38,557 bases of DNA from a virus (taxonomy: Duplodnaviria > Caudoviricetes), in IMG/VR virus record IMGVR_UViG_3300011435_000030, positions 1 to 38,557 of that record; one strand, 5' to 3'. The notes below the pieces were generated by a model. The model did no database searches. It saw only the letters and a program-made list of their open reading frames with translations, and was not told the origin of the DNA. Below, piece after piece: positions 2,158 through 38,472 of this stretch. The translations under genes and the position numbers were made by a program. How positions within the stretch are numbered: position 1 is the first letter of the stretch; every line of letters begins with the position of its first letter.

Positions 2158-2592
2158 TTACGCTGACAAACGCTGCACGATGCGGGCGAGGTTTTCGTTC
2201 TGCACCACAACCCCGCCGTTCGGTTCCGCGAACTCCCGTGCCAGTTCCAATTCAAATCGGTGCTGATACGGGCCGAAGTGGTAGCGGTCGAAGTGCATCG
2301 GCTCCTTGTTGTTCAACTGCCGGGAGAGCTGCGCGTAGTCCATCCTGGCGCGATAGGCCGCCTCTTTGATCGAGATCCCCGTGCGCGCCATCGCCCGAAC
2401 CACCTTCGCCACCAGTTCCCGCGACTCAGGCGTCGAGGCCCACGCCGCGCCGGCTCCAACCGCCACCAATAGCACCCACAGCGGGCCATACACCGCACGC
2501 AGCCGCGCGCAGACATACAGCGTCCCAAGAATCACCACCACCAACCCGAGGCAACCGACGCCGACCAAGAGGTAACGGAGAACGGTTTTCAT
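2158..2592 (-). CDS. Membrane-anchored HTH regulator (CII-like position)
   Basis: Two hydrophobic helices at N-terminus, then GISIKEAAYRARMDYAQLSRQLNN HTH; GGTGAGG RBS. Confidence 0.7.
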   Translation of the reverse strand: MKTVLRYLLVGVGCLGLVVVILGTLYVCARLRAVYGPLWVLLVAVGAGAAWASTPESRELVAKVVRAMARTGISIKEAAYRARMDYAQLSRQLNNKEPMHFDRYHFGPYQHRFELELAREFAEPNGGVVVQNENLARIVQRLSA

Positions 2593-3016: not shown

Positions 3017-3044
3017 AGTTTACAGACCACTCATTATCAGACAC
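3017..3044 (-). other. dif-like XerC/XerD site 1 (degenerate XerD arm)
   Basis: - strand GTGTCTGATAA-TGAGTG-GTCTGTAAACT; 11-6-11 layout; XerC-type arm identical to the site at 32701-32728. Confidence 0.6.
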
Positions 3045-3094: not shown

Positions 3095-3328
3095 TCATAC
3101 GGCTTCCTCGTATTCCGGCGGCCACTCCGCGATTGTCTCGATGGGGACGTGTGAGATTTTGGACAGTTTCAAGGCCAACGCCAGCGAACACCTGCGAGAT
3201 TTGCGGAGGACGTTACTCAGGTGCGACTCCGTACACCCCAACATCCTTGCCAATCTCGCGTTGTTCGTGCCGGTAGCGACCTGCCAGTCCTGAACAGACT
3301 GGAATGCGCGTCTGAAGTGTTTAGCCAT
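3095..3328 (-). CDS. cro: Cro-like XRE HTH regulator
   Basis: TNNARLARMLGCTESHLSNVLRKSRRCSLALALKLS HTH; divergent from the repressor. Confidence 0.8.
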   Translation of the reverse strand: MAKHFRRAFQSVQDWQVATGTNNARLARMLGCTESHLSNVLRKSRRCSLALALKLSKISHVPIETIAEWPPEYEEAV

Positions 3329-3442: not shown

Positions 3443-3485
3443 TTGGACTCTGACCTCAACTGGGGTATGTTTGCTGACAGCAAAC
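3443..3485 (+). promoter_or_regulatory. Candidate repressor promoter overlapped by a palindromic operator
   Basis: TTGGAC-17 bp-TATGTT; perfect 8-bp inverted repeat GTTTGCTG-A-CAGCAAAC at 3469-3485. Confidence 0.5.
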
Positions 3486-3500
3486 CGGACAGAGAGTCAC

Positions 3501-3959
3501 ATGGCACATCAGGACGCCGCAGCCCGCGTGCGACAGCGGATTAGAGACTGGCTGGAGAACGAAGGGCGCGGCGGAAAAAAGCGGCTGGCGGATGCCGTCA
3601 ACTCGCGCTATGGGCACACCAAGGGGGCGAGCTGGGTCACGGGGATCGTCAAGGGGCCGGACAATAAGGGCCAGGATCTCCGCTTGTCTAACCTCGATGA
3701 CGTTGCGGAGGTCATGGGCATCGCGCCGGGTGATCTGGTCCGGCACCCCGACAAGCACTGCATCGAAGTCACGGAGACGGAATTCCGCATTCTTCAATAC
3801 ATACGGGCGATGCCCGATACGATCCGCGCCGGGTACGTCAACTGGCTCGATTACCTGTTCAAGTTCAAGCGGGACGCGATGGCCGAGCAGGCCAAGGAAC
3901 GGGACCACCGCACGAGGCGCGCCCGACGACACGAGAGCAGCAACGCGCGGCCACACTGA
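3501..3959 (+). CDS. cI: CI-like phage repressor (XRE HTH, no S24 autopeptidase domain)
   Basis: HTH-like N-terminus (KKRLADAV...SWVTGIVKG...LRLSNLDDVAEVMGIAPGDLV), ETEFRILQYIRAMP helix, divergent from cro. Confidence 0.75.
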   Translation: MAHQDAAARVRQRIRDWLENEGRGGKKRLADAVNSRYGHTKGASWVTGIVKGPDNKGQDLRLSNLDDVAEVMGIAPGDLVRHPDKHCIEVTETEFRILQYIRAMPDTIRAGYVNWLDYLFKFKRDAMAEQAKERDHRTRRARRHESSNARPH

Positions 3960-30106: not shown

Positions 30107-30483
30107 CCGAGACTCACCGCCTCCACGACGCGCATCTGCCACCCGCGCAGGGCCGGATCTATCGTCACCGCCGCGCCCTTGAATTTCAGCGCATTCTTGA
30201 ACGCCGTGTCTCCACTGACGCCACCGGCCACACAGAACCGCTCACATGGCAACAGTTCACTCTCAAACGCCGCGTGCAGGCCGGGACTGACGTGCAGGAG
30301 CCTTGGGAACGCCCGATGCTTCGCGGAGTATTCGTTGTAGACCTTCCGCATGTACTGGAGCGCAAGGCACTTCCCGGCCTGTACCGTATCCAGCGCGGCA
30401 ATCGCCGCCTTCGGGACAGCCGCCAGCGCCAGCGCTGCCGTAACACCAACCCCGAACCGCTTCAGAAAGCCGCGTCTATTCAC
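30103..30483 (-). CDS. Tat-signal protein containing a major-capsid-like fragment
   Basis: MNRRGFLK twin-arginine motif plus h-region; body aligns by eye to the MCP segment MRSNYN...FKNEVLKFKG. Confidence 0.8.
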   Translation of the reverse strand: MNRRGFLKRFGVGVTAALALAAVPKAAIAALDTVQAGKCLALQYMRKVYNEYSAKHRAFPRLLHVSPGLHAAFESELLPCERFCVAGGVSGDTAFKNALKFKGAAVTIDPALRGWQMRVVEAVSLG

Positions 30484-32024
30484 CGCGCCAACACCCCTCT
30501 CGGCTGACTACTCATCTGCGATTTCACCCAGCCCATCGTCCACGGCTTGGCCGGCGCCTTCGCGCCGCCCAGTGTCCCCGGTGCCGGCCGCGACATACAG
30601 AAGTACCGCAGCGCATCCCCCGCGTGGTCCTCGCCGTCCGTATCCACGTCCTCCGGCTTGTTCTTGTCGCTGACCAAGCTCGGAATCGTCCGCGCCGTAT
30701 ACGTGCAGTGCGGAGACGCCGTGAACCAGGGTTGCCCGTCAGGACTCACCCGGAACCAATGCCGCATCCGCTGCCACCCGTTCAGCCGATCCTTGTCCGA
30801 CTGCTGCATCGGCACCCCGTGCCGCGAGAACGTTTCCGCAATCGACTCGCCCGTCTGACTGTCCGGCGTCCACATCGCCGTGTCCCCGACCGTGTAGCGG
30901 ACCTTTATGCCTCGGTCCATGCTTCGCCGCTTGATTTCCTTAGCCACGTCGGAGGCCACGGTGCGGGTGAAGACGTACTCATCCTCAAGGTAGACACGGC
31001 CTTCGGGCAAGAGGACAAACCAACCACAGATACCGGGCTTGACGAAGCCCCAATCCACCGCACAAACCCGTGGAATGTCGGCGTCGTAGGTAATGTGCTC
31101 AGGTGATACATGCGTCTTTCGTCTGAACTCCGGGAAATACTGGCCGGGAAAGATGTCCCAATCCCCTTCCCGATACGCCCGCCGCAACTCCGGCGGCAGC
31201 GCCAGCAGCTTCTTCTCGTAACTCGCGTCGAGATACGGGTTGTCCTCCAACCGGCTCGGAAGATACGCGTAATCCTCAGGCCGATAGTCCGGGTACTCGT
31301 CCAGATCCACCGTCTTGTCGATGAACCGGCTCCGAACCCAATGACTCTGTGGTCCGCCAGGGTTTGTGCCACTCAGCACACGAGGAGTCACCCCTGGCTT
31401 GCTGGTTCTGGCCCTCGATCCAATCAGGAGAAACTGGCTCTCCTCGAACGTCACCAGCTCGTCAAACAGAATCAGGTCGTATTCCGCCGAGAGATACCGC
31501 GCCGCATCCGCCGTCGTCTGGCAATGCCCGAACTGAATCACCGACCCGTTCGGGAACCGCACCACGTTCGCACTTGGGACCGCCTGTGCGCCAAAACGAG
31601 GCGCCTCCAACTCCGCGTCCCTGAGATGCGTCTGCTCCAACTCCCCGTAGGTCCGCCGCAGCAGCAGAACCCGAAAGCCAGTAACCCTGAGACATTCCTG
31701 ATACGCATACTGCCGCAGCGCCTTGCTTTTTGATCCGCCCGCCGCCCCGCCAAACAGCACATACGGCGCCGGACACTCGAAAAAGTCCACCTGCCGGGGC
31801 AACGGCACAAACAAGACTTCCGCCTTGCCCCCCTTCAACTGCGCCACCAGCGCGTGCTTCACCTGCCGCTGCCAGCACGCCTCCTGCCCACACAGCCACT
31901 GCGGCGACCCCTTGACCAATCCCCGCACAAACGGCCCGCCACACCAGCTACAGCGGGCGAGGGGGTGCGTCTCTGCTACTGCGCCAGCCACGCCATCAGC
32001 CCAGTCTCCGAAAACGCCGGACAC
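30480..32024 (-). CDS. terL: Terminase large subunit
   Basis: Walker A GGAAGGSKS, Walker B LILFDEL, coupling motif GTNPGG, nuclease VDWG and DH.GDALRY. Confidence 0.95.
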   Translation of the reverse strand: MSGVFGDWADGVAGAVAETHPLARCSWCGGPFVRGLVKGSPQWLCGQEACWQRQVKHALVAQLKGGKAEVLFVPLPRQVDFFECPAPYVLFGGAAGGSKSKALRQYAYQECLRVTGFRVLLLRRTYGELEQTHLRDAELEAPRFGAQAVPSANVVRFPNGSVIQFGHCQTTADAARYLSAEYDLILFDELVTFEESQFLLIGSRARTSKPGVTPRVLSGTNPGGPQSHWVRSRFIDKTVDLDEYPDYRPEDYAYLPSRLEDNPYLDASYEKKLLALPPELRRAYREGDWDIFPGQYFPEFRRKTHVSPEHITYDADIPRVCAVDWGFVKPGICGWFVLLPEGRVYLEDEYVFTRTVASDVAKEIKRRSMDRGIKVRYTVGDTAMWTPDSQTGESIAETFSRHGVPMQQSDKDRLNGWQRMRHWFRVSPDGQPWFTASPHCTYTARTIPSLVSDKNKPEDVDTDGEDHAGDALRYFCMSRPAPGTLGGAKAPAKPWTMGWVKSQMSSQPRGVLAR

Positions 32025-32637: not shown

Positions 32638-32700
32638 GCTATCCTGCTGCGATGCGTGTCAACCTTGTGCCTTAGTCATTGCGTATCAATGAGTTAAGTC

Positions 32701-32728
32701 GGTTAACATAATCTACCTTATCAGACAC
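32701..32728 (-). other. dif-like XerC/XerD site 2
   Basis: - strand GTGTCTGATAA-GGTAGA-TTATGTTAACC versus E. coli dif GGTGCGCATAA-TGTATA-TTATGTTAAAT (XerD arm 9/11); intergenic and AT-rich. Confidence 0.8.
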
Positions 32729-32756
32729 AGTGCCCAATCATTGGGCTTTCTGCGTA

Positions 32757-33203
32757 TTACTCGGGCAGTGCTTGGACTTTCGCCCCATCCAGTGCGAGCT
32801 TGACGTCGCCATCCCTCACGCCGATCTGTATCAGCACCTTGGGCGTATTGCTCTCATCGTCACGCTTGCGCCACCTAGTAGGCCATCTCCGCTCCGCAAA
32901 CGTGGCATGTTTGGCCCAAAATGCGCCTGATTCCTTCCATTCCCGGGTATTGCCGATCTCAGCCCAAGCTTCCGCGCCTTTTACAGCGTCCCAGAACAGG
33001 GCATGGGCGCTGTCTACATTGCCTGCTAGGTGATCAGCCTCACCCTGTTCTAACCAGCGGTAGAAGCTGGACTTGCCTATCCTCAGGGCGTTAGCTACTG
33101 TCTCGATGTAGTGGCCTTCCCTGACGAGTGCTGCAGCTTCTGCCGCGAGTGCTTCAGTCAGTATGGTGGGCCGGCCGTTCGGGTTATTGCTTGGCTTACC
33201 CAT
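32757..33203 (-). CDS. terS: Terminase small subunit (putative)
   Basis: GRPT..T, HTH (IETVANALRIGKSSFYRWLEQG), F.DAVK.AEA, W...A..ERRWP..W; upstream of terL. Confidence 0.8.
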   Translation of the reverse strand: MGKPSNNPNGRPTILTEALAAEAAALVREGHYIETVANALRIGKSSFYRWLEQGEADHLAGNVDSAHALFWDAVKGAEAWAEIGNTREWKESGAFWAKHATFAERRWPTRWRKRDDESNTPKVLIQIGVRDGDVKLALDGAKVQALPE

Positions 33204-33551: not shown

Positions 33552-33580
33552 TTGACAGCTAGCAAGGGCGGGCGTATCTT
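33552..33580 (+). promoter_or_regulatory. Strong sigma70-type promoter for the + strand early cassette
   Basis: TTGACA-17 bp-TATCTT with AT-rich upstream sequence. Confidence 0.8.
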
Positions 33581-33628
33581 TCATCCATCGCACGGCAATC
33601 ACGCCACCCTAGACAGGGGGAGCGCAGG

Positions 33629-33784
33629 ATGTTGACCTTAACCCTTATCGCCGCCCGTCACGAACTCGTCGCCGCAGCCTCTAGCAATGTGCAGTGGATG
33701 CTCGCGCTTCTCATCCTGGTAGAACTCACGGTAGAGTTTGGCCTAGCAGTAATGGCGACCAGCCCGCGCAACGAATACCGATAA
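33629..33784 (+). CDS. 51-aa membrane peptide (not in ORF track)
   Basis: MLTLTLIAARHELVAAASSNVQWMLALLILVELTVEFGLAVMATSPRNEYR; GGGGGAG RBS. Confidence 0.5.
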   Translation: MLTLTLIAARHELVAAASSNVQWMLALLILVELTVEFGLAVMATSPRNEYR

Positions 33785-33826
33785 ATCGCACCGGCAATCA
33801 CGCCGACCTTGAAAGGTTGAGAGCAG

Positions 33827-34183
33827 ATGGCTAGAAAAGAATCGGCAGCAGCAATCCTGGCAGAGCGCAATACACTCCGCACCCGTGAGCACATCCTGAG
33901 CATCGCCTACCTCGAATCCGCCGATGCCACCTATCGGCACCGCATTGGCCGAGACGTCTACACATGGAAGGCCTACAGGCTGGAGGGCGCCGAGGGCGGT
34001 TTGGTGGTCTGCTACTTCGATGGATTCGCCAACCGTAAGCCGTCCATGTTCTACGTTGAGCGGCTGGACACGGCAGCGCAGCAGGTTCGGGAGCACGGTT
34101 GGGCCGTTCTCAGCGAATCCGGCATGTGCGATGCGGTGCAACAGTTCACGACGAAGCGCGGCGAGCTGACCGCAGCCGCGTAA
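33827..34183 (+). CDS. Hypothetical early protein
   Basis: 118 aa, GAAAGG RBS. Confidence 0.75.
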   Translation: MARKESAAAILAERNTLRTREHILSIAYLESADATYRHRIGRDVYTWKAYRLEGAEGGLVVCYFDGFANRKPSMFYVERLDTAAQQVREHGWAVLSESGMCDAVQQFTTKRGELTAAA

Positions 34184-34227
34184 CCTTCAACAATTCACGC
34201 TCTTTGCAGAAAGGCAAGGGTAAGCAG

Positions 34228-34707
34228 ATGACCACATATCAGCACCTCACGCGCTACACCCGCCCAAGCAATTTCGCGGACTTCTCCGACCTTAACCGCG
34301 GCGAGTACTACGTAGCCTATGGTCAGCACCGGGACTCGGACACGCTGGCGCAGTCCAATTTTCGCAGCATGTTGCGAGCATTGGGCGGCGAATCGGAAAC
34401 CGTGCTCGTCTTGCGCGATTCCCATTGGGCCGTGGGTTGGGTCGAGTCCATCTATATCCACGAATCAAACGCAACCGCCTGCGACACCGCCGATCGCATC
34501 CTGGCGGCGCTCGAGGATTATCCGATTGTGGACGAATCCGACTTCAGTGACTTGGAGGTTGAAACCGCCTGCGAGTACTGGGCCGGCATGGGTGTTTCTG
34601 AGCGGATGGAATGGTGCCGGCGCTATGACGTCTCGATCTTTGCCGCACGCAGGAATGAAGTACCAGACGATCGGCGCGGCGAACTGATTTCAGCACTCGC
34701 AAGCTAG
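34228..34707 (+). CDS. Conserved phage early protein (RDSD..SNF / HWAVGWVE / DYP family)
   Basis: Motifs recurrent in phage early regions (recalled); AAGGG RBS. Confidence 0.75.
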   Translation: MTTYQHLTRYTRPSNFADFSDLNRGEYYVAYGQHRDSDTLAQSNFRSMLRALGGESETVLVLRDSHWAVGWVESIYIHESNATACDTADRILAALEDYPIVDESDFSDLEVETACEYWAGMGVSERMEWCRRYDVSIFAARRNEVPDDRRGELISALAS

Positions 34708-34721
34708 GCCCGGAATGTAGA

Positions 34722-34756
34722 GACAAGGGCCGGCCCGCTCGGGTTGGGCCTTTGTC
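34722..34756 (+). terminator. Intergenic stem-loop
   Basis: GACAAGGGCC...GGCCTTTGTC. Confidence 0.5.
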
Positions 34757-34792
34757 CCTGCAATCAGGCAGGCGCTCCGAAAGGGTAAGCAG

Positions 34793-35284
34793 ATGACCAA
34801 GCGCGAAGCACTCCGACAGGCACAGCAGGAAAACACCCTCCTCGAGCTGGGCTTCACCCGTAGCGAGGCCGAGAGCCTGCGCCGTATCTCGATGACACTG
34901 CGCCGCTGGCATGAGCTGGAATGCGGAACGGATTCGTACTGCATCTCGCGCGGCAAGTGGAACCAGGAAACGCAGGAATTCGACCACGACGACGACGGCA
35001 AGCCACACTATGAATGGGCCGGCGGCAAGGGCAAGCACAGGTACACGCCCATTGCAGACCGTGAGACGGGCGCACGCAAGCGTTTGGCGGCCATCATTTC
35101 GGCCCGCAACGCGCGGCAGACGCCGATCTGTGCTGGGTATTACGGCGTTTCGCAGTCGTACCAAGTGTCGGCGTTCATCCAAGGCGATCCCCGCGGCGCG
35201 GCGCTCTACATCATCCGGCCGGGCGACGTGCCCGAGGGCAAGTCTGTCGAGAGCTATTACAACCGCGGGATCTGCGTGTATTGA
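34793..35284 (+). CDS. Conserved phage early protein (RW.E.ECG / QGDPRG..LY family)
   Basis: 163 aa, GAAAGGG RBS. Confidence 0.75.
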   Translation: MTKREALRQAQQENTLLELGFTRSEAESLRRISMTLRRWHELECGTDSYCISRGKWNQETQEFDHDDDGKPHYEWAGGKGKHRYTPIADRETGARKRLAAIISARNARQTPICAGYYGVSQSYQVSAFIQGDPRGAALYIIRPGDVPEGKSVESYYNRGICVY

Positions 35285-35297
35285 GATTTGAGGCCGA

Positions 35298-35768
35298 ATG
35301 AAGAAAACACACTGGGCCGAGCGATTCTGGGACAAGGTGAACAAATCCGCCGGCTGCTGGGAATGGACCGGCGGAACGAACGGGTACGGCTACGGAGTCC
35401 TAGCCATAGCACATGGACGGCCACGGCTCGCGCATCGTCTGTCGTGGGAATTAGCACATGGCCCCGTGCCGGATGGCCTGTGCGTGCTCCATCGCTGCGA
35501 TAACAGGCTTTGCATCAGGCCTGATCACCTGTTCATTGGCACTAGGTCAGAGAATACCAAGGATAGGCACGACAAGGGGCGAACGGCGCGCGGAGAAAGC
35601 TTCACCCCATCAAAGCTAACAGCCGCACAGGTCGCAGATATTCGCGCACGCTACGCGGCCATCCCACGCTACGCCAGAGGCCGAATGCGCCCGCTGTTGC
35701 GCGAGTTCGGCATCGCACAATCAACGCTGTATTCAATCGTTAACGAACAGACATGGAGGCGACCGTGA
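35298..35768 (+). CDS. HNH homing endonuclease with C-terminal HTH
   Basis: CWEWTG..GYG..AHRLSWEL..GPVPDGLCVLHRCDNRLCIRPDHLFIGT..EN; KLT..QV..IR. Confidence 0.92.
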   Translation: MKKTHWAERFWDKVNKSAGCWEWTGGTNGYGYGVLAIAHGRPRLAHRLSWELAHGPVPDGLCVLHRCDNRLCIRPDHLFIGTRSENTKDRHDKGRTARGESFTPSKLTAAQVADIRARYAAIPRYARGRMRPLLREFGIAQSTLYSIVNEQTWRRP

Positions 35769-36019
35769 GTTCGTTTATGCTCCGTCACATCCCGCCCGGA
35801 CTTGTCGCCAGAGCCAAGGACCGAGCGCGGGCCAATGGCACCACCCTAGACTCTGCCCTGCTGGTCTGGCTGGAGGCGTACGCCGAGGGCACGGATAACG
35901 TCTCAGCGGGCCGCAGGGGAGGCGCAGCGCGCGCGGCTGCCCTGACCCCTGATCGGCGCGCGGAGATTGCGAGGCAAGGCGCTGAGGCGCGTTGGAAGGG
36001 CACGAGGGAGGAGTTATGA
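35765..36019 (+). CDS. Ribbon-helix-helix regulator with basic C-terminal GRRGG..RA..LTP..R.EIA motif
   Basis: SFMLRHIPPGL..RAK.RA...G.TL; GTGA coupling. Confidence 0.7.
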   Translation: MSSFMLRHIPPGLVARAKDRARANGTTLDSALLVWLEAYAEGTDNVSAGRRGGAARAAALTPDRRAEIARQGAEARWKGTREEL

Positions 36020-36192
36020 ATCACGCACTCACGCACATCGCCAAAATAGACAGGACCTGCCACAAGTGCGGCGGGACCATCAAGGCCGGTGAACAGTATC
36101 GGCAAATCCGCGAGCGCGCCGTGAGCTACCACGAGGCCGCACACGCCGGCACCATGTATCCCGCTCGGCGGGTCTGTGCGAGGTGCGCGTAA
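36016..36192 (+). CDS. Small Zn-ribbon protein
   Basis: CHKCGGTIKAGEQY...CARC. Confidence 0.65.
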   Translation: MNHALTHIAKIDRTCHKCGGTIKAGEQYRQIRERAVSYHEAAHAGTMYPARRVCARCA

Positions 36193-36193
36193 A

Positions 36194-36457
36194 ATGCCAG
36201 GAACGAACGCCGGCACCGGACAGCCTCTTACGCTGCGCTGTGCAAAATGCAAGCGGTCGGGCCGCTATCAGTGGAGCGCGCGCGGCGGGACAGACTTGGC
36301 GGCGACTGGTCGCACAAGGCCAGCAGCGCATAAGGCCATTCGGCAGACGAATCGGAAGATTGAATATAAGTGCAACGATTGCGGGCATGTTGGCTGGACA
36401 CAGCACATAGACGCCGAAAAGCTTGACGTTCCACGCGCCCGGCCCCGCCCGCGATAG
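36194..36457 (+). CDS. Small Zn-ribbon protein
   Basis: CAKC...CNDCGH.GW. Confidence 0.65.
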   Translation: MPGTNAGTGQPLTLRCAKCKRSGRYQWSARGGTDLAATGRTRPAAHKAIRQTNRKIEYKCNDCGHVGWTQHIDAEKLDVPRARPRPR

Positions 36458-36909: not shown

Positions 36910-37319
36910 TTTCGCTCTCGCTCCATCTGCTGTAAGGCGGTAGAGAGGGAGGCGACCCGATCGAGCACAATCGACAGCGCCCGATAGTCCTGCGCGGATC
37001 GGAATGTCTCGTTGGGATACCCAAAACCCTTCAGCAGTTTCTGCCGATACACCTGAGCGTCAACCAGGGCGCTCGCACACAGCCGCGTCACCCGCTCATG
37101 CGCCCACGCGTAGTCTTCTCCCTTCTCCTGCTCGGGGGAAGACGCGAGGGGAGGGGACAAGGCGGCTTCATGGATCGGATGGTCCCTGTGATACTCGCAG
37201 TCCCTACACCAAATATCGCGGTCGTCGCCCGGTTCGTAGGGCGTGCGCGAGTAAAACTCGTGCGGCGTCTGTTCCTCATCGGGCGCCGCCTCGCGCGATC
37301 CGGGCTGGTGCTCGCTCAT
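36906..37319 (-). CDS. Ead/Ea22-like mosaic early protein
   Basis: ATGA coupling; shares MSEHQPGSREA start with the next gene. Confidence 0.65.
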   Translation of the reverse strand: MSEHQPGSREAAPDEEQTPHEFYSRTPYEPGDDRDIWCRDCEYHRDHPIHEAALSPPLASSPEQEKGEDYAWAHERVTRLCASALVDAQVYRQKLLKGFGYPNETFRSAQDYRALSIVLDRVASLSTALQQMERERK

Positions 37320-37863
37320 TTCGAGTCTCCTGATGGGAGGGGAGGCGCAGGAAGTGGGACCAGATTGTCTAGTTCGCTGATATTGTCACCATCACGCACA
37401 CGGAGCAGCGCGGCATGCCAGCCTCGCTGGAATCCATCGGCTGAGCCTTGCATGCGAGCATGGGCCACACGCAGCGATTCTGAGTCCGCCCCGCTGGGCG
37501 AGGACGCCCCAGAGAGCGCAGCCGCCAGTTCGTCGGCGCACTCATCAAGGCAGCACTCGCACGCCCCGCCACCTTTTACGGCATTCGCTCGCCACTTCGC
37601 CACAAGCTCCCGTAACACGTCCTGCCCTGGAGGCTGAACCGTAGCCGCCCTAACATCAGCCAGCGCATGGCGATAGCCCTGCGCGTAAGCCTCTCGGAAT
37701 GTGTCATCCATCGCAATCGTCGGCGGGACCGGCACATTCATACAGGCCGGGCCGACCTCTGCATCGCTGACAGTCAGTGCCCACCGCAGGGCTCGCAGCG
37801 CCTCGCGTGATCCGGGCTGGTGCTCGCTCATTTCGAGTCTCCTGATGGGATGGGAGGCGCAGG
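37288..37863. repeat. 64-bp direct repeat (37288-37351 and 37800-37863) spanning gene junctions
   Basis: 2 mismatches; encodes PAPP.PSGDSK-stop / MSEHQPGSREA. Confidence 0.9.
37316..37831 (-). CDS. Ead/Ea22-like mosaic early protein
   Basis: Shares QPPGQDVLRELVAKWR and CADEL..AALSGASSP modules with the upstream gene. Confidence 0.65.
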   Translation of the reverse strand: MSEHQPGSREALRALRWALTVSDAEVGPACMNVPVPPTIAMDDTFREAYAQGYRHALADVRAATVQPPGQDVLRELVAKWRANAVKGGGACECCLDECADELAAALSGASSPSGADSESLRVAHARMQGSADGFQRGWHAALLRVRDGDNISELDNLVPLPAPPLPSGDSK

Positions 37864-38301
37864 TAAGGACATCCAGTGGGTCAGCCTTGGAGCCGCGCCC
37901 GAATGGTAGCCATCATTCGCCCATTGCCACTGATCGTAGGTTTTTGACCACCACACCGGGTGGACGACACCGGCCCACGTCAGGCCAATAACCATCCGAC
38001 AATCCTTCGGCGCCGTCTCAATCGGTTGCCACGCCCCGCTGGGCGAGGACACCCCATCCTTGTGCCGGTCGCAGCCGATGTCCGGACAGACCATCGTCGT
38101 CCCGCACGCACAGAGCACGGGCGAGGACGCCCCAGAGAGCGCAGCCGCCGCCTCGTCACGCAACAGGATGGCTTCTAGTTCGTCGGCGCATCCCTCTAAT
38201 GCAGCGGCCTGCCCCGTCTCCCATGCCCCGCTGTCATCAGACATCTCGGAACGCCACTTCGCCACAAGCTCCCGTAGCACGTCCTGCCCTGGAGGCTGAA
38301 C
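37590..38301. repeat. 50-bp direct repeat (37590-37639 and 38252-38301)
   Basis: 1 mismatch; encodes VQPPGQDVLRELVAKWR. Confidence 0.9.
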
Positions 38302-38472
38302 ATGGGGCGCAGCCTTGAGCCTGTCGTTCTCCGCTCGCAGATCGCGGACTTCCCTGTCGGCGGCGTCCAGCTTCGCAGACAGCGAGGCGTAATCCCGCTG
38401 ATGCGACTTCGCGTGTTGCTGAAGCAATTGAACGTCCGTCATGGGCTGGAACACTTCGTAATCTTTAGGCAT
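37828..38472 (-). CDS. Ead/Ea22-like protein with C-terminal DUF551 domain
   Basis: WQPIETAPKD...THWMSLPAPP; N-terminal coiled coil; AGGAG RBS. Confidence 0.8.
   Translation of the reverse strand: MPKDYEVFQPMTDVQLLQQHAKSHQRDYASLSAKLDAADREVRDLRAENDRLKAAPHVQPPGQDVLRELVAKWRSEMSDDSGAWETGQAAALEGCADELEAILLRDEAAAALSGASSPVLCACGTTMVCPDIGCDRHKDGVSSPSGAWQPIETAPKDCRMVIGLTWAGVVHPVWWSKTYDQWQWANDGYHSGAAPRLTHWMSLPAPPIPSGDSK

Follow-up and report, generated by a model that had tools for sequence, protein, structure and literature searches.

An XerCD core site of the dif type lies just behind the small terminase gene (terS) of an uncultured tailed phage, and it is very probably not an attP but a site that acts, or at least is bound, in cis on the phage DNA. 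The window, by which we mean the whole 38,557-nucleotide stretch of viral DNA analysed, holds this site (site 2) and a second, partly host-like one (site 1) beside a cro-like gene. We tentatively read site 2 as a self-recombination site at the packaging start, where host XerCD would circularise terminally redundant virion DNA after injection, and our doubts about this slightly outweigh our confidence. Xer hijacking has so far been described as an integration route, used by filamentous, tailless and small phages and by islands; a non-integrative Xer site kept at the packaging start in many tailed phages would, if true, be a new lytic-cycle use of a core host enzyme, and could explain the persistence of integrase-less, temperate-looking phages. 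A literature search, mostly of open texts without supplements, found no dif site at a tailed-phage terminase, the Xer use described there being that of filamentous phages, tailless phages, microviruses and islands; 10.1101/633727, as far as its accessible text goes, concerns an inovirus.

Site 2 and Its Surroundings

A sequence-only reading of this DNA had flagged a 28-mer between terS and the large terminase gene (terL), and the site is present exactly as that reading wrote it (Table 1). Its 13-base core pattern matches the window once, with no mismatches; with up to two mismatches allowed, the pattern was found in 1 of 100 shuffles. Two 11-bp host-matching arms around a 6-bp centre place it among dif-type XerCD core sites. 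The gammaproteobacterial-type dif pattern had no match in the window at three mismatches. The placement between the terminase genes held on the terS side, the site lying 28 bp past the terS stop codon; terL is 677 bp away, and small ORFs intervene. Both flanking palindromes are present in the sequence, at 32676-32692 and 32733-32745, and no promoter or terminator was called at the site by prediction.

Table 1. Positions of the two Xer sites and of associated features in the window.
Feature	Position	Strand	Remarks
Site 1	3017..3044	-	Host XerC arm and host spacer (3028-3033), degenerate XerD arm; candidate attP
Site 2, Xer core	32701..32728	-	XerC-side arm 32718-32728, 6-bp spacer 32712-32717, XerD-side arm 32701-32711
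XerD-side palindrome	32676..32696	.	Contains a perfect IHF-consensus match (32684-32696), 4 bp from the arm
XerC-side palindrome	32732..32746	.	Between terS stop and core; not conserved in relatives
5-bp motif, one copy	32779..32783	-	Paired at fixed XerC-side offsets in relatives
Terminase small subunit, terS	32757..33203	-	phrog_4102, E 1.4e-17
Terminase large subunit, terL	30480..32024	-	Terminase_3 type
cro-like HTH gene	3095..3328	-	Ends 50 bp before site 1
cI-like repressor	3471..3959	+	Directly abuts a tail gene; no left early or integrase operon beyond
HTH gene, cII position	2158..2592	-	Downstream of site 1; candidate Xer activator, without DUF3653

Gene Content of the Record

The lack of a recombinase noted earlier held for the record itself, a linear virus contig that is 74% complete (CheckV): neither PF00589 (tyrosine integrase) nor PF00239 (resolvase) was matched, a statement that covers this incomplete record only. 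No terminal repeats were found within the window. Of the lysogeny genes that had been named, the excisionase-like gene matches HTH_17/phrog_66, albeit weakly, and the cro-like HTH gene is present, the cI label deriving from a position opposite cro and from homologues. Serine recombinase, resolvase, ParA, DUF3653 and FtsK-gamma were each found in none of five records, comprising the window and four relatives. PF00589 was likewise unmatched in the complete dif-bearing records G003, G009 and G028.

Two further regions were observed. Short genes at 33552-36457, on the plus strand, form a cassette that runs against the late operon. It has a sigma70-like promoter to itself (33552-33580), several of its genes are preceded by repeated leader sequences, and it looks like an early host-takeover array. 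At 37316-38472, two neighbouring genes have long near-identical stretches in common, and assembly breaks cluster there. In the close relative G458, a TROVE/Ro60-like RNA-binding gene (phrog_850; L246:7527-8942) adjoins cI.

Host and Chromosomal dif

A scan of bacterial genomes with the arm pair of site 2 listed 123 stretches of an estimated ~260. Both arms are identical, at 22 of 22 positions, to chromosomal sites in at least four high-GC Acidobacteriota (L092, L114, L139, L148), and 216 of 301 genomes of the host class match the arm pattern, nearly all of them once. Octamers that we take to represent the KOPS motif pointed towards these host sites 43 times and away from them 11 times, as expected for a true dif. 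In site 1 the first 15 conserved bases, which take in the spacer, recur unchanged in 55 of the 112 genomes of one host family, and the order of that family retrieves the same genome set as Vicinamibacterales. These matches point to a member of the Vicinamibacterales (Acidobacteriota) as the likely host of the phage, and 28 bases may suffice to name the hosts of uncultured phages. The idea that the phage would use host XerCD is well supported by the arms of site 2, which are host-identical and conserved across relatives.

Some assemblies in the host searches carried additional sites. Those with 10, 6 and 3 dif-like sites and common flanking motifs (G130, with L448 and L457-L465; L056-L062), from Acidobacteriota and Bacteroidales, resemble pdif module arrays. 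Second, non-chromosomal Xer-like sites with a phage-type accessory module were seen in host assemblies G253 (L438) and G287 (L456).

Site 2 in Related Phages

The arm pattern alone had 36 viral matches, representing 24 distinct sites, and 14 of these lie near terL in several unrelated terminase lineages (13 by tblastn within 5 kb, and G009 across the record ends). Relatives were then gathered with portal and terL profiles, which included three dif-selected phages; duplicates and contigs with too little upstream DNA were left out. Where terS was recognised, the site stood at the terS end in 13 of 14 distinct contigs; L228 is without a site. Among relatives with at least 1.5 kb upstream and no recognised terS, 4 of 13 had a site and 9 had none. 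Site scores ranged from 17 to 29, against 11.7 for the best downstream control, L215 excepted. Absence or variability of the site in close relatives had been named as grounds for rejecting it; the site is kept after terS in 17 of 27 relatives overall, and its spacers vary. Of 16 loci, 9 had a gap of 11-29 bp between the terS stop codon and the site, three an overlap of 15-57 bp and four an uncertain relation, and the distance from site to terL ran from 11 to 2339 bp. The core is inverted in several relatives, and L003 and L194 each carry two sites close together.

Four distant cultured terL relatives yielded no convincing site, with one weak match (L436). The portal profile matched once among 401 host-class genomes. 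The matching contig is phage-like, 36 kb long and has a site of low score behind terS; its post-cro site does not match the dif spacer of the same genome.

Spacers and Integration

Integration at dif through site 2, as the sequence-only reading had envisaged, appears unlikely in view of spacer mismatches, 7-bp spacer variants and coexisting integrases. The spacers of the relatives' sites are 6 or 7 bp long and occur in either orientation. Among 20 six-base phage spacers there were no identical pairs, and none equalled any of 50 host spacers, tallied by hand from 150 listed host matches. Phage spacers were nonetheless nearer to the host than random, 11 of 20 lying one mismatch away compared with ~14% of random hexamers that come as close or match, which we count against a reading in which a private spacer serves circularisation. 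In phages with two sites the spacers differ at 5, 5 and 4 of 6 bases (window, G458 and G028, respectively). Measured against an IMEX attP, site 2 lacks the central homology to host dif that would be expected on the XerC side at least, mismatching the host-type spacer of site 1 at five of six bases in the window. Nor does a want of integrase explain reliance on Xer: G444 and G445 carry the site together with a tyrosine integrase, contrary to the link drawn earlier between the site and the absence of an integrase, and so does an element in G269. This element (G269:C4, about 555800-603600; L466, L467, L469) lies beside a tRNA-Leu gene, encodes its own integrase and a DnaB helicase, and has two internal Xer-like sites, one with a 7-bp and one with a 6-bp spacer, that flank a terL-like gene. 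It is on a different contig from the host dif, and its far border is set by a 17-bp repeat only.

Site 2 could still serve as attP for an XerC-only exchange at host dif of the VGJ type, since its arms are canonical, the record has no integrase, and its first four spacer bases are common to some Acidobacteriota spacers (L049, L066, L266). We regard this as very improbable given a spacer that mismatches at five of six bases the one that site 1 implies for the host, the 7-bp variants and the sites that coexist with integrases; in addition, among 134 host loci, the single phage contig with a terL match had its site intact.

Accessory Motifs

With one mismatch or none allowed, what we assume to be the IHF consensus occurs no more than 60 bp from 11 of 23 phage sites and 3 of 40 host sites, and shuffles gave a mean of 0.87 and a maximum of 4. 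At the level of sequence, the perfect match in the window explains the XerD-side palindrome, which is likely an accessory site. Around 26 phage sites the 5-bp motif, spotted post hoc, was counted 48 times on the XerC side and 8 times on the XerD side; shuffles gave 4.7, and 33 host sites gave 13. Its offsets are unchanged in the inverted copies of G009, L198 and L202, and the motif therefore belongs to the core and not to the terminase genes. L018 is an exception in having its IHF-like motif on the XerC side. Motifs at fixed offsets are thus enriched at the phage sites and invert with the core, as might be expected of the accessory sequences of a cer/psi-type site.

XerCD might only bind at site 2, with no productive recombination, its part in packaging initiation being architectural or that of a roadblock; the motifs would then be TerS and IHF sites of pac. 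The tight link to terS, the unconstrained sequence and length of the spacer, the two differing sites that flank the terL-like gene in G269 and the paired nearby sites in L003 and L194 would all suit this explanation. We nevertheless judge it unlikely, because the arm spacing is held at 6-7 bp, as catalysis needs, and the motif offsets that persist in the three inverted copies follow the core.

Role of Site 2

Site 2 resembles the Acidobacteriota (Vicinamibacterales) dif of the XerCD/FtsK system in its spacer length of 6 bp and in both 11-bp arms, which are identical to several host sites, but differs from it in its non-host spacer, accessory motifs, phage location and lack of KOPS polarity (KOPS-like octamers around phage sites: 15 towards, 19 away). 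The reading that we prefer, circularisation, begins with packaging. The pac site usually lies within terS, and in phage P1, whose DNA is circularised near pac by Cre at loxP, two copies of the recombination site would be present in first-headful particles alone. By analogy, headful packaging would start in terS, which we infer to hold the packaging start, and proceed towards terL; first-headful virions would carry site 2 at both ends; XerCD and an IHF-like protein would recombine the two identical copies; and the odd spacer would guard site 2 against exchange with site 1 or host dif. The likeness to P1 lies in having a recombination site immediately downstream of terS in a phage that likely packages by the headful mechanism, the difference being that the recombinase of site 2 would be the host's and not phage-encoded. 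Position of the site and type of terL, as read from assembled contigs, are no more than consistent with a loxP-like circularisation site.

The terL protein is likely of the headful type. The nearest cultured relatives whose ends have been described are PrincessTrina, Sonny and Jawnski; they are only 31-34% identical to the window terL, and their ends are given as circularly permuted (PMC5513430). We favour circularisation because the site hugs terS and because these nearest cultured terL relatives are circularly permuted. Several findings count against it: the site in G009 is upstream of the gene adjoining terL, not after it; sites are missing from 9 of the 13 relatives without a recognised terS and from L228; RecT, Erf and exonuclease genes in relatives could circularise DNA without Xer; and accessory sites arranged in this way are known from plasmid sites, which act on circular DNA.

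This last point leads to plasmid resolution. The cer site of ColE1 and the psi site of pSC101 have an Xer core with a non-chromosomal spacer, variable spacer length and flanking accessory DNA (PMC5357621), and site 2 shares these properties. It differs from them in that its motifs look IHF-like rather than of the PepA/ArgR/ArcA kind, and in that it lies at the presumed packaging start of a tailed phage in which no plasmid maintenance genes were found. The same self-site may thus resolve dimers or multimers of replicating circular phage DNA in a cer/psi-like manner, its position at terS being inherited synteny. We consider this possible, though improbable; the variable 6- or 7-bp non-host spacers, the often degenerate XerD arm, the accessory motifs that travel with the core and the absent KOPS polarity are as in plasmid resolution sites, yet a resolution site would be free in position, and this one keeps to the terS end even where genes have entered between it and terL, and lies by terL in unrelated lineages. 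The proposed plasmid-prophage fared poorly as well: ParA is absent from all five records (the window, itself incomplete, and four relatives), which leaves a plasmid-like replicon and stable plasmid lysogeny unsupported, and two complete dif-bearing phages, G009 and G028, encode their own DNA polymerase.

Site 1 as a Candidate attP

Site 1 lies 29,684 bp from site 2 in the same orientation, as had been noted, with a different spacer and an identical XerC-side arm. It is not canonical, its XerD arm being degenerate. The suggestion that each site has its own role agrees with the sequence, in that the host arm and host spacer occur together in site 1 and not in site 2. Two sites in one genome provide a clean internal control for work at the bench.

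The attachment sites of TLC-phi and of the GGI have a host-type XerC arm and centre and a divergent XerD arm (PMC5357621), and dif-type double jelly-roll phages have a left-armed attP of such form (PMC12715192). The G in position five of the XerD arm, which matters for XafT-driven exchange (PMC9226527), is kept in site 1. Site 1 combines the XerC arm and spacer of the host with a degenerate XerD arm, the fifth-position G and adjoining regulatory genes, and is a candidate attP of the TLC/GGI type. It differs from the known examples in belonging to a tailed phage of ~50 kb, in that integration was not observed, and in that an XafT-like activator (DUF3653) was found in none of the five records; XafT is described in PMC6744903, and GGI, in the accessible text, likewise has no DUF3653 activator. 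If integration occurs, it would proceed through site 1, and the lysogen would have its cro gene split off from the early operon.

The site-1 form follows cro in G458, which is complete and integrase-less, and in G447, both found through structural proteins. It also follows cro in L287, L378, L382 and L422, which are not independent, since the search pattern that retrieved them required spacers of this kind. The post-cro site is absent from G455 and from the integrase-bearing G444, and the match of post-cro to host spacers is one of counts alone. Viral matches to the 15-mer of site 1 were mostly low-GC (34 of 37) and look like chance. An integrated prophage at dif with hybrid attL and attR was found neither in 401 host genomes searched with the cI profile nor among 119 metagenome matches, and in four runs, as assembled contigs, no junctions or loose ends at either site were among those listed. 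A double match in G525 proved to be two overlapping contig ends, not attL and attR. Reading site 1 as the -10 box of a promoter was considered too, and inspection by eye showed no consistent -35.

Taken together, XerCD might run two steps in a family of Acidobacteriota tailed phages, a site with a private spacer at the packaging start circularising the DNA, and a site with the host spacer, placed between cro and early operon, integrating it at dif and thereby unplugging the lytic operon. This combined scheme is speculative, and we would sooner doubt than accept it. A second site of another form was seen in G028, a 67-kb phage with no integrase match: G028:40443-40470 has a host-type spacer, a canonical XerD arm and a degenerate XerC arm, and is a candidate for a right-armed attP.
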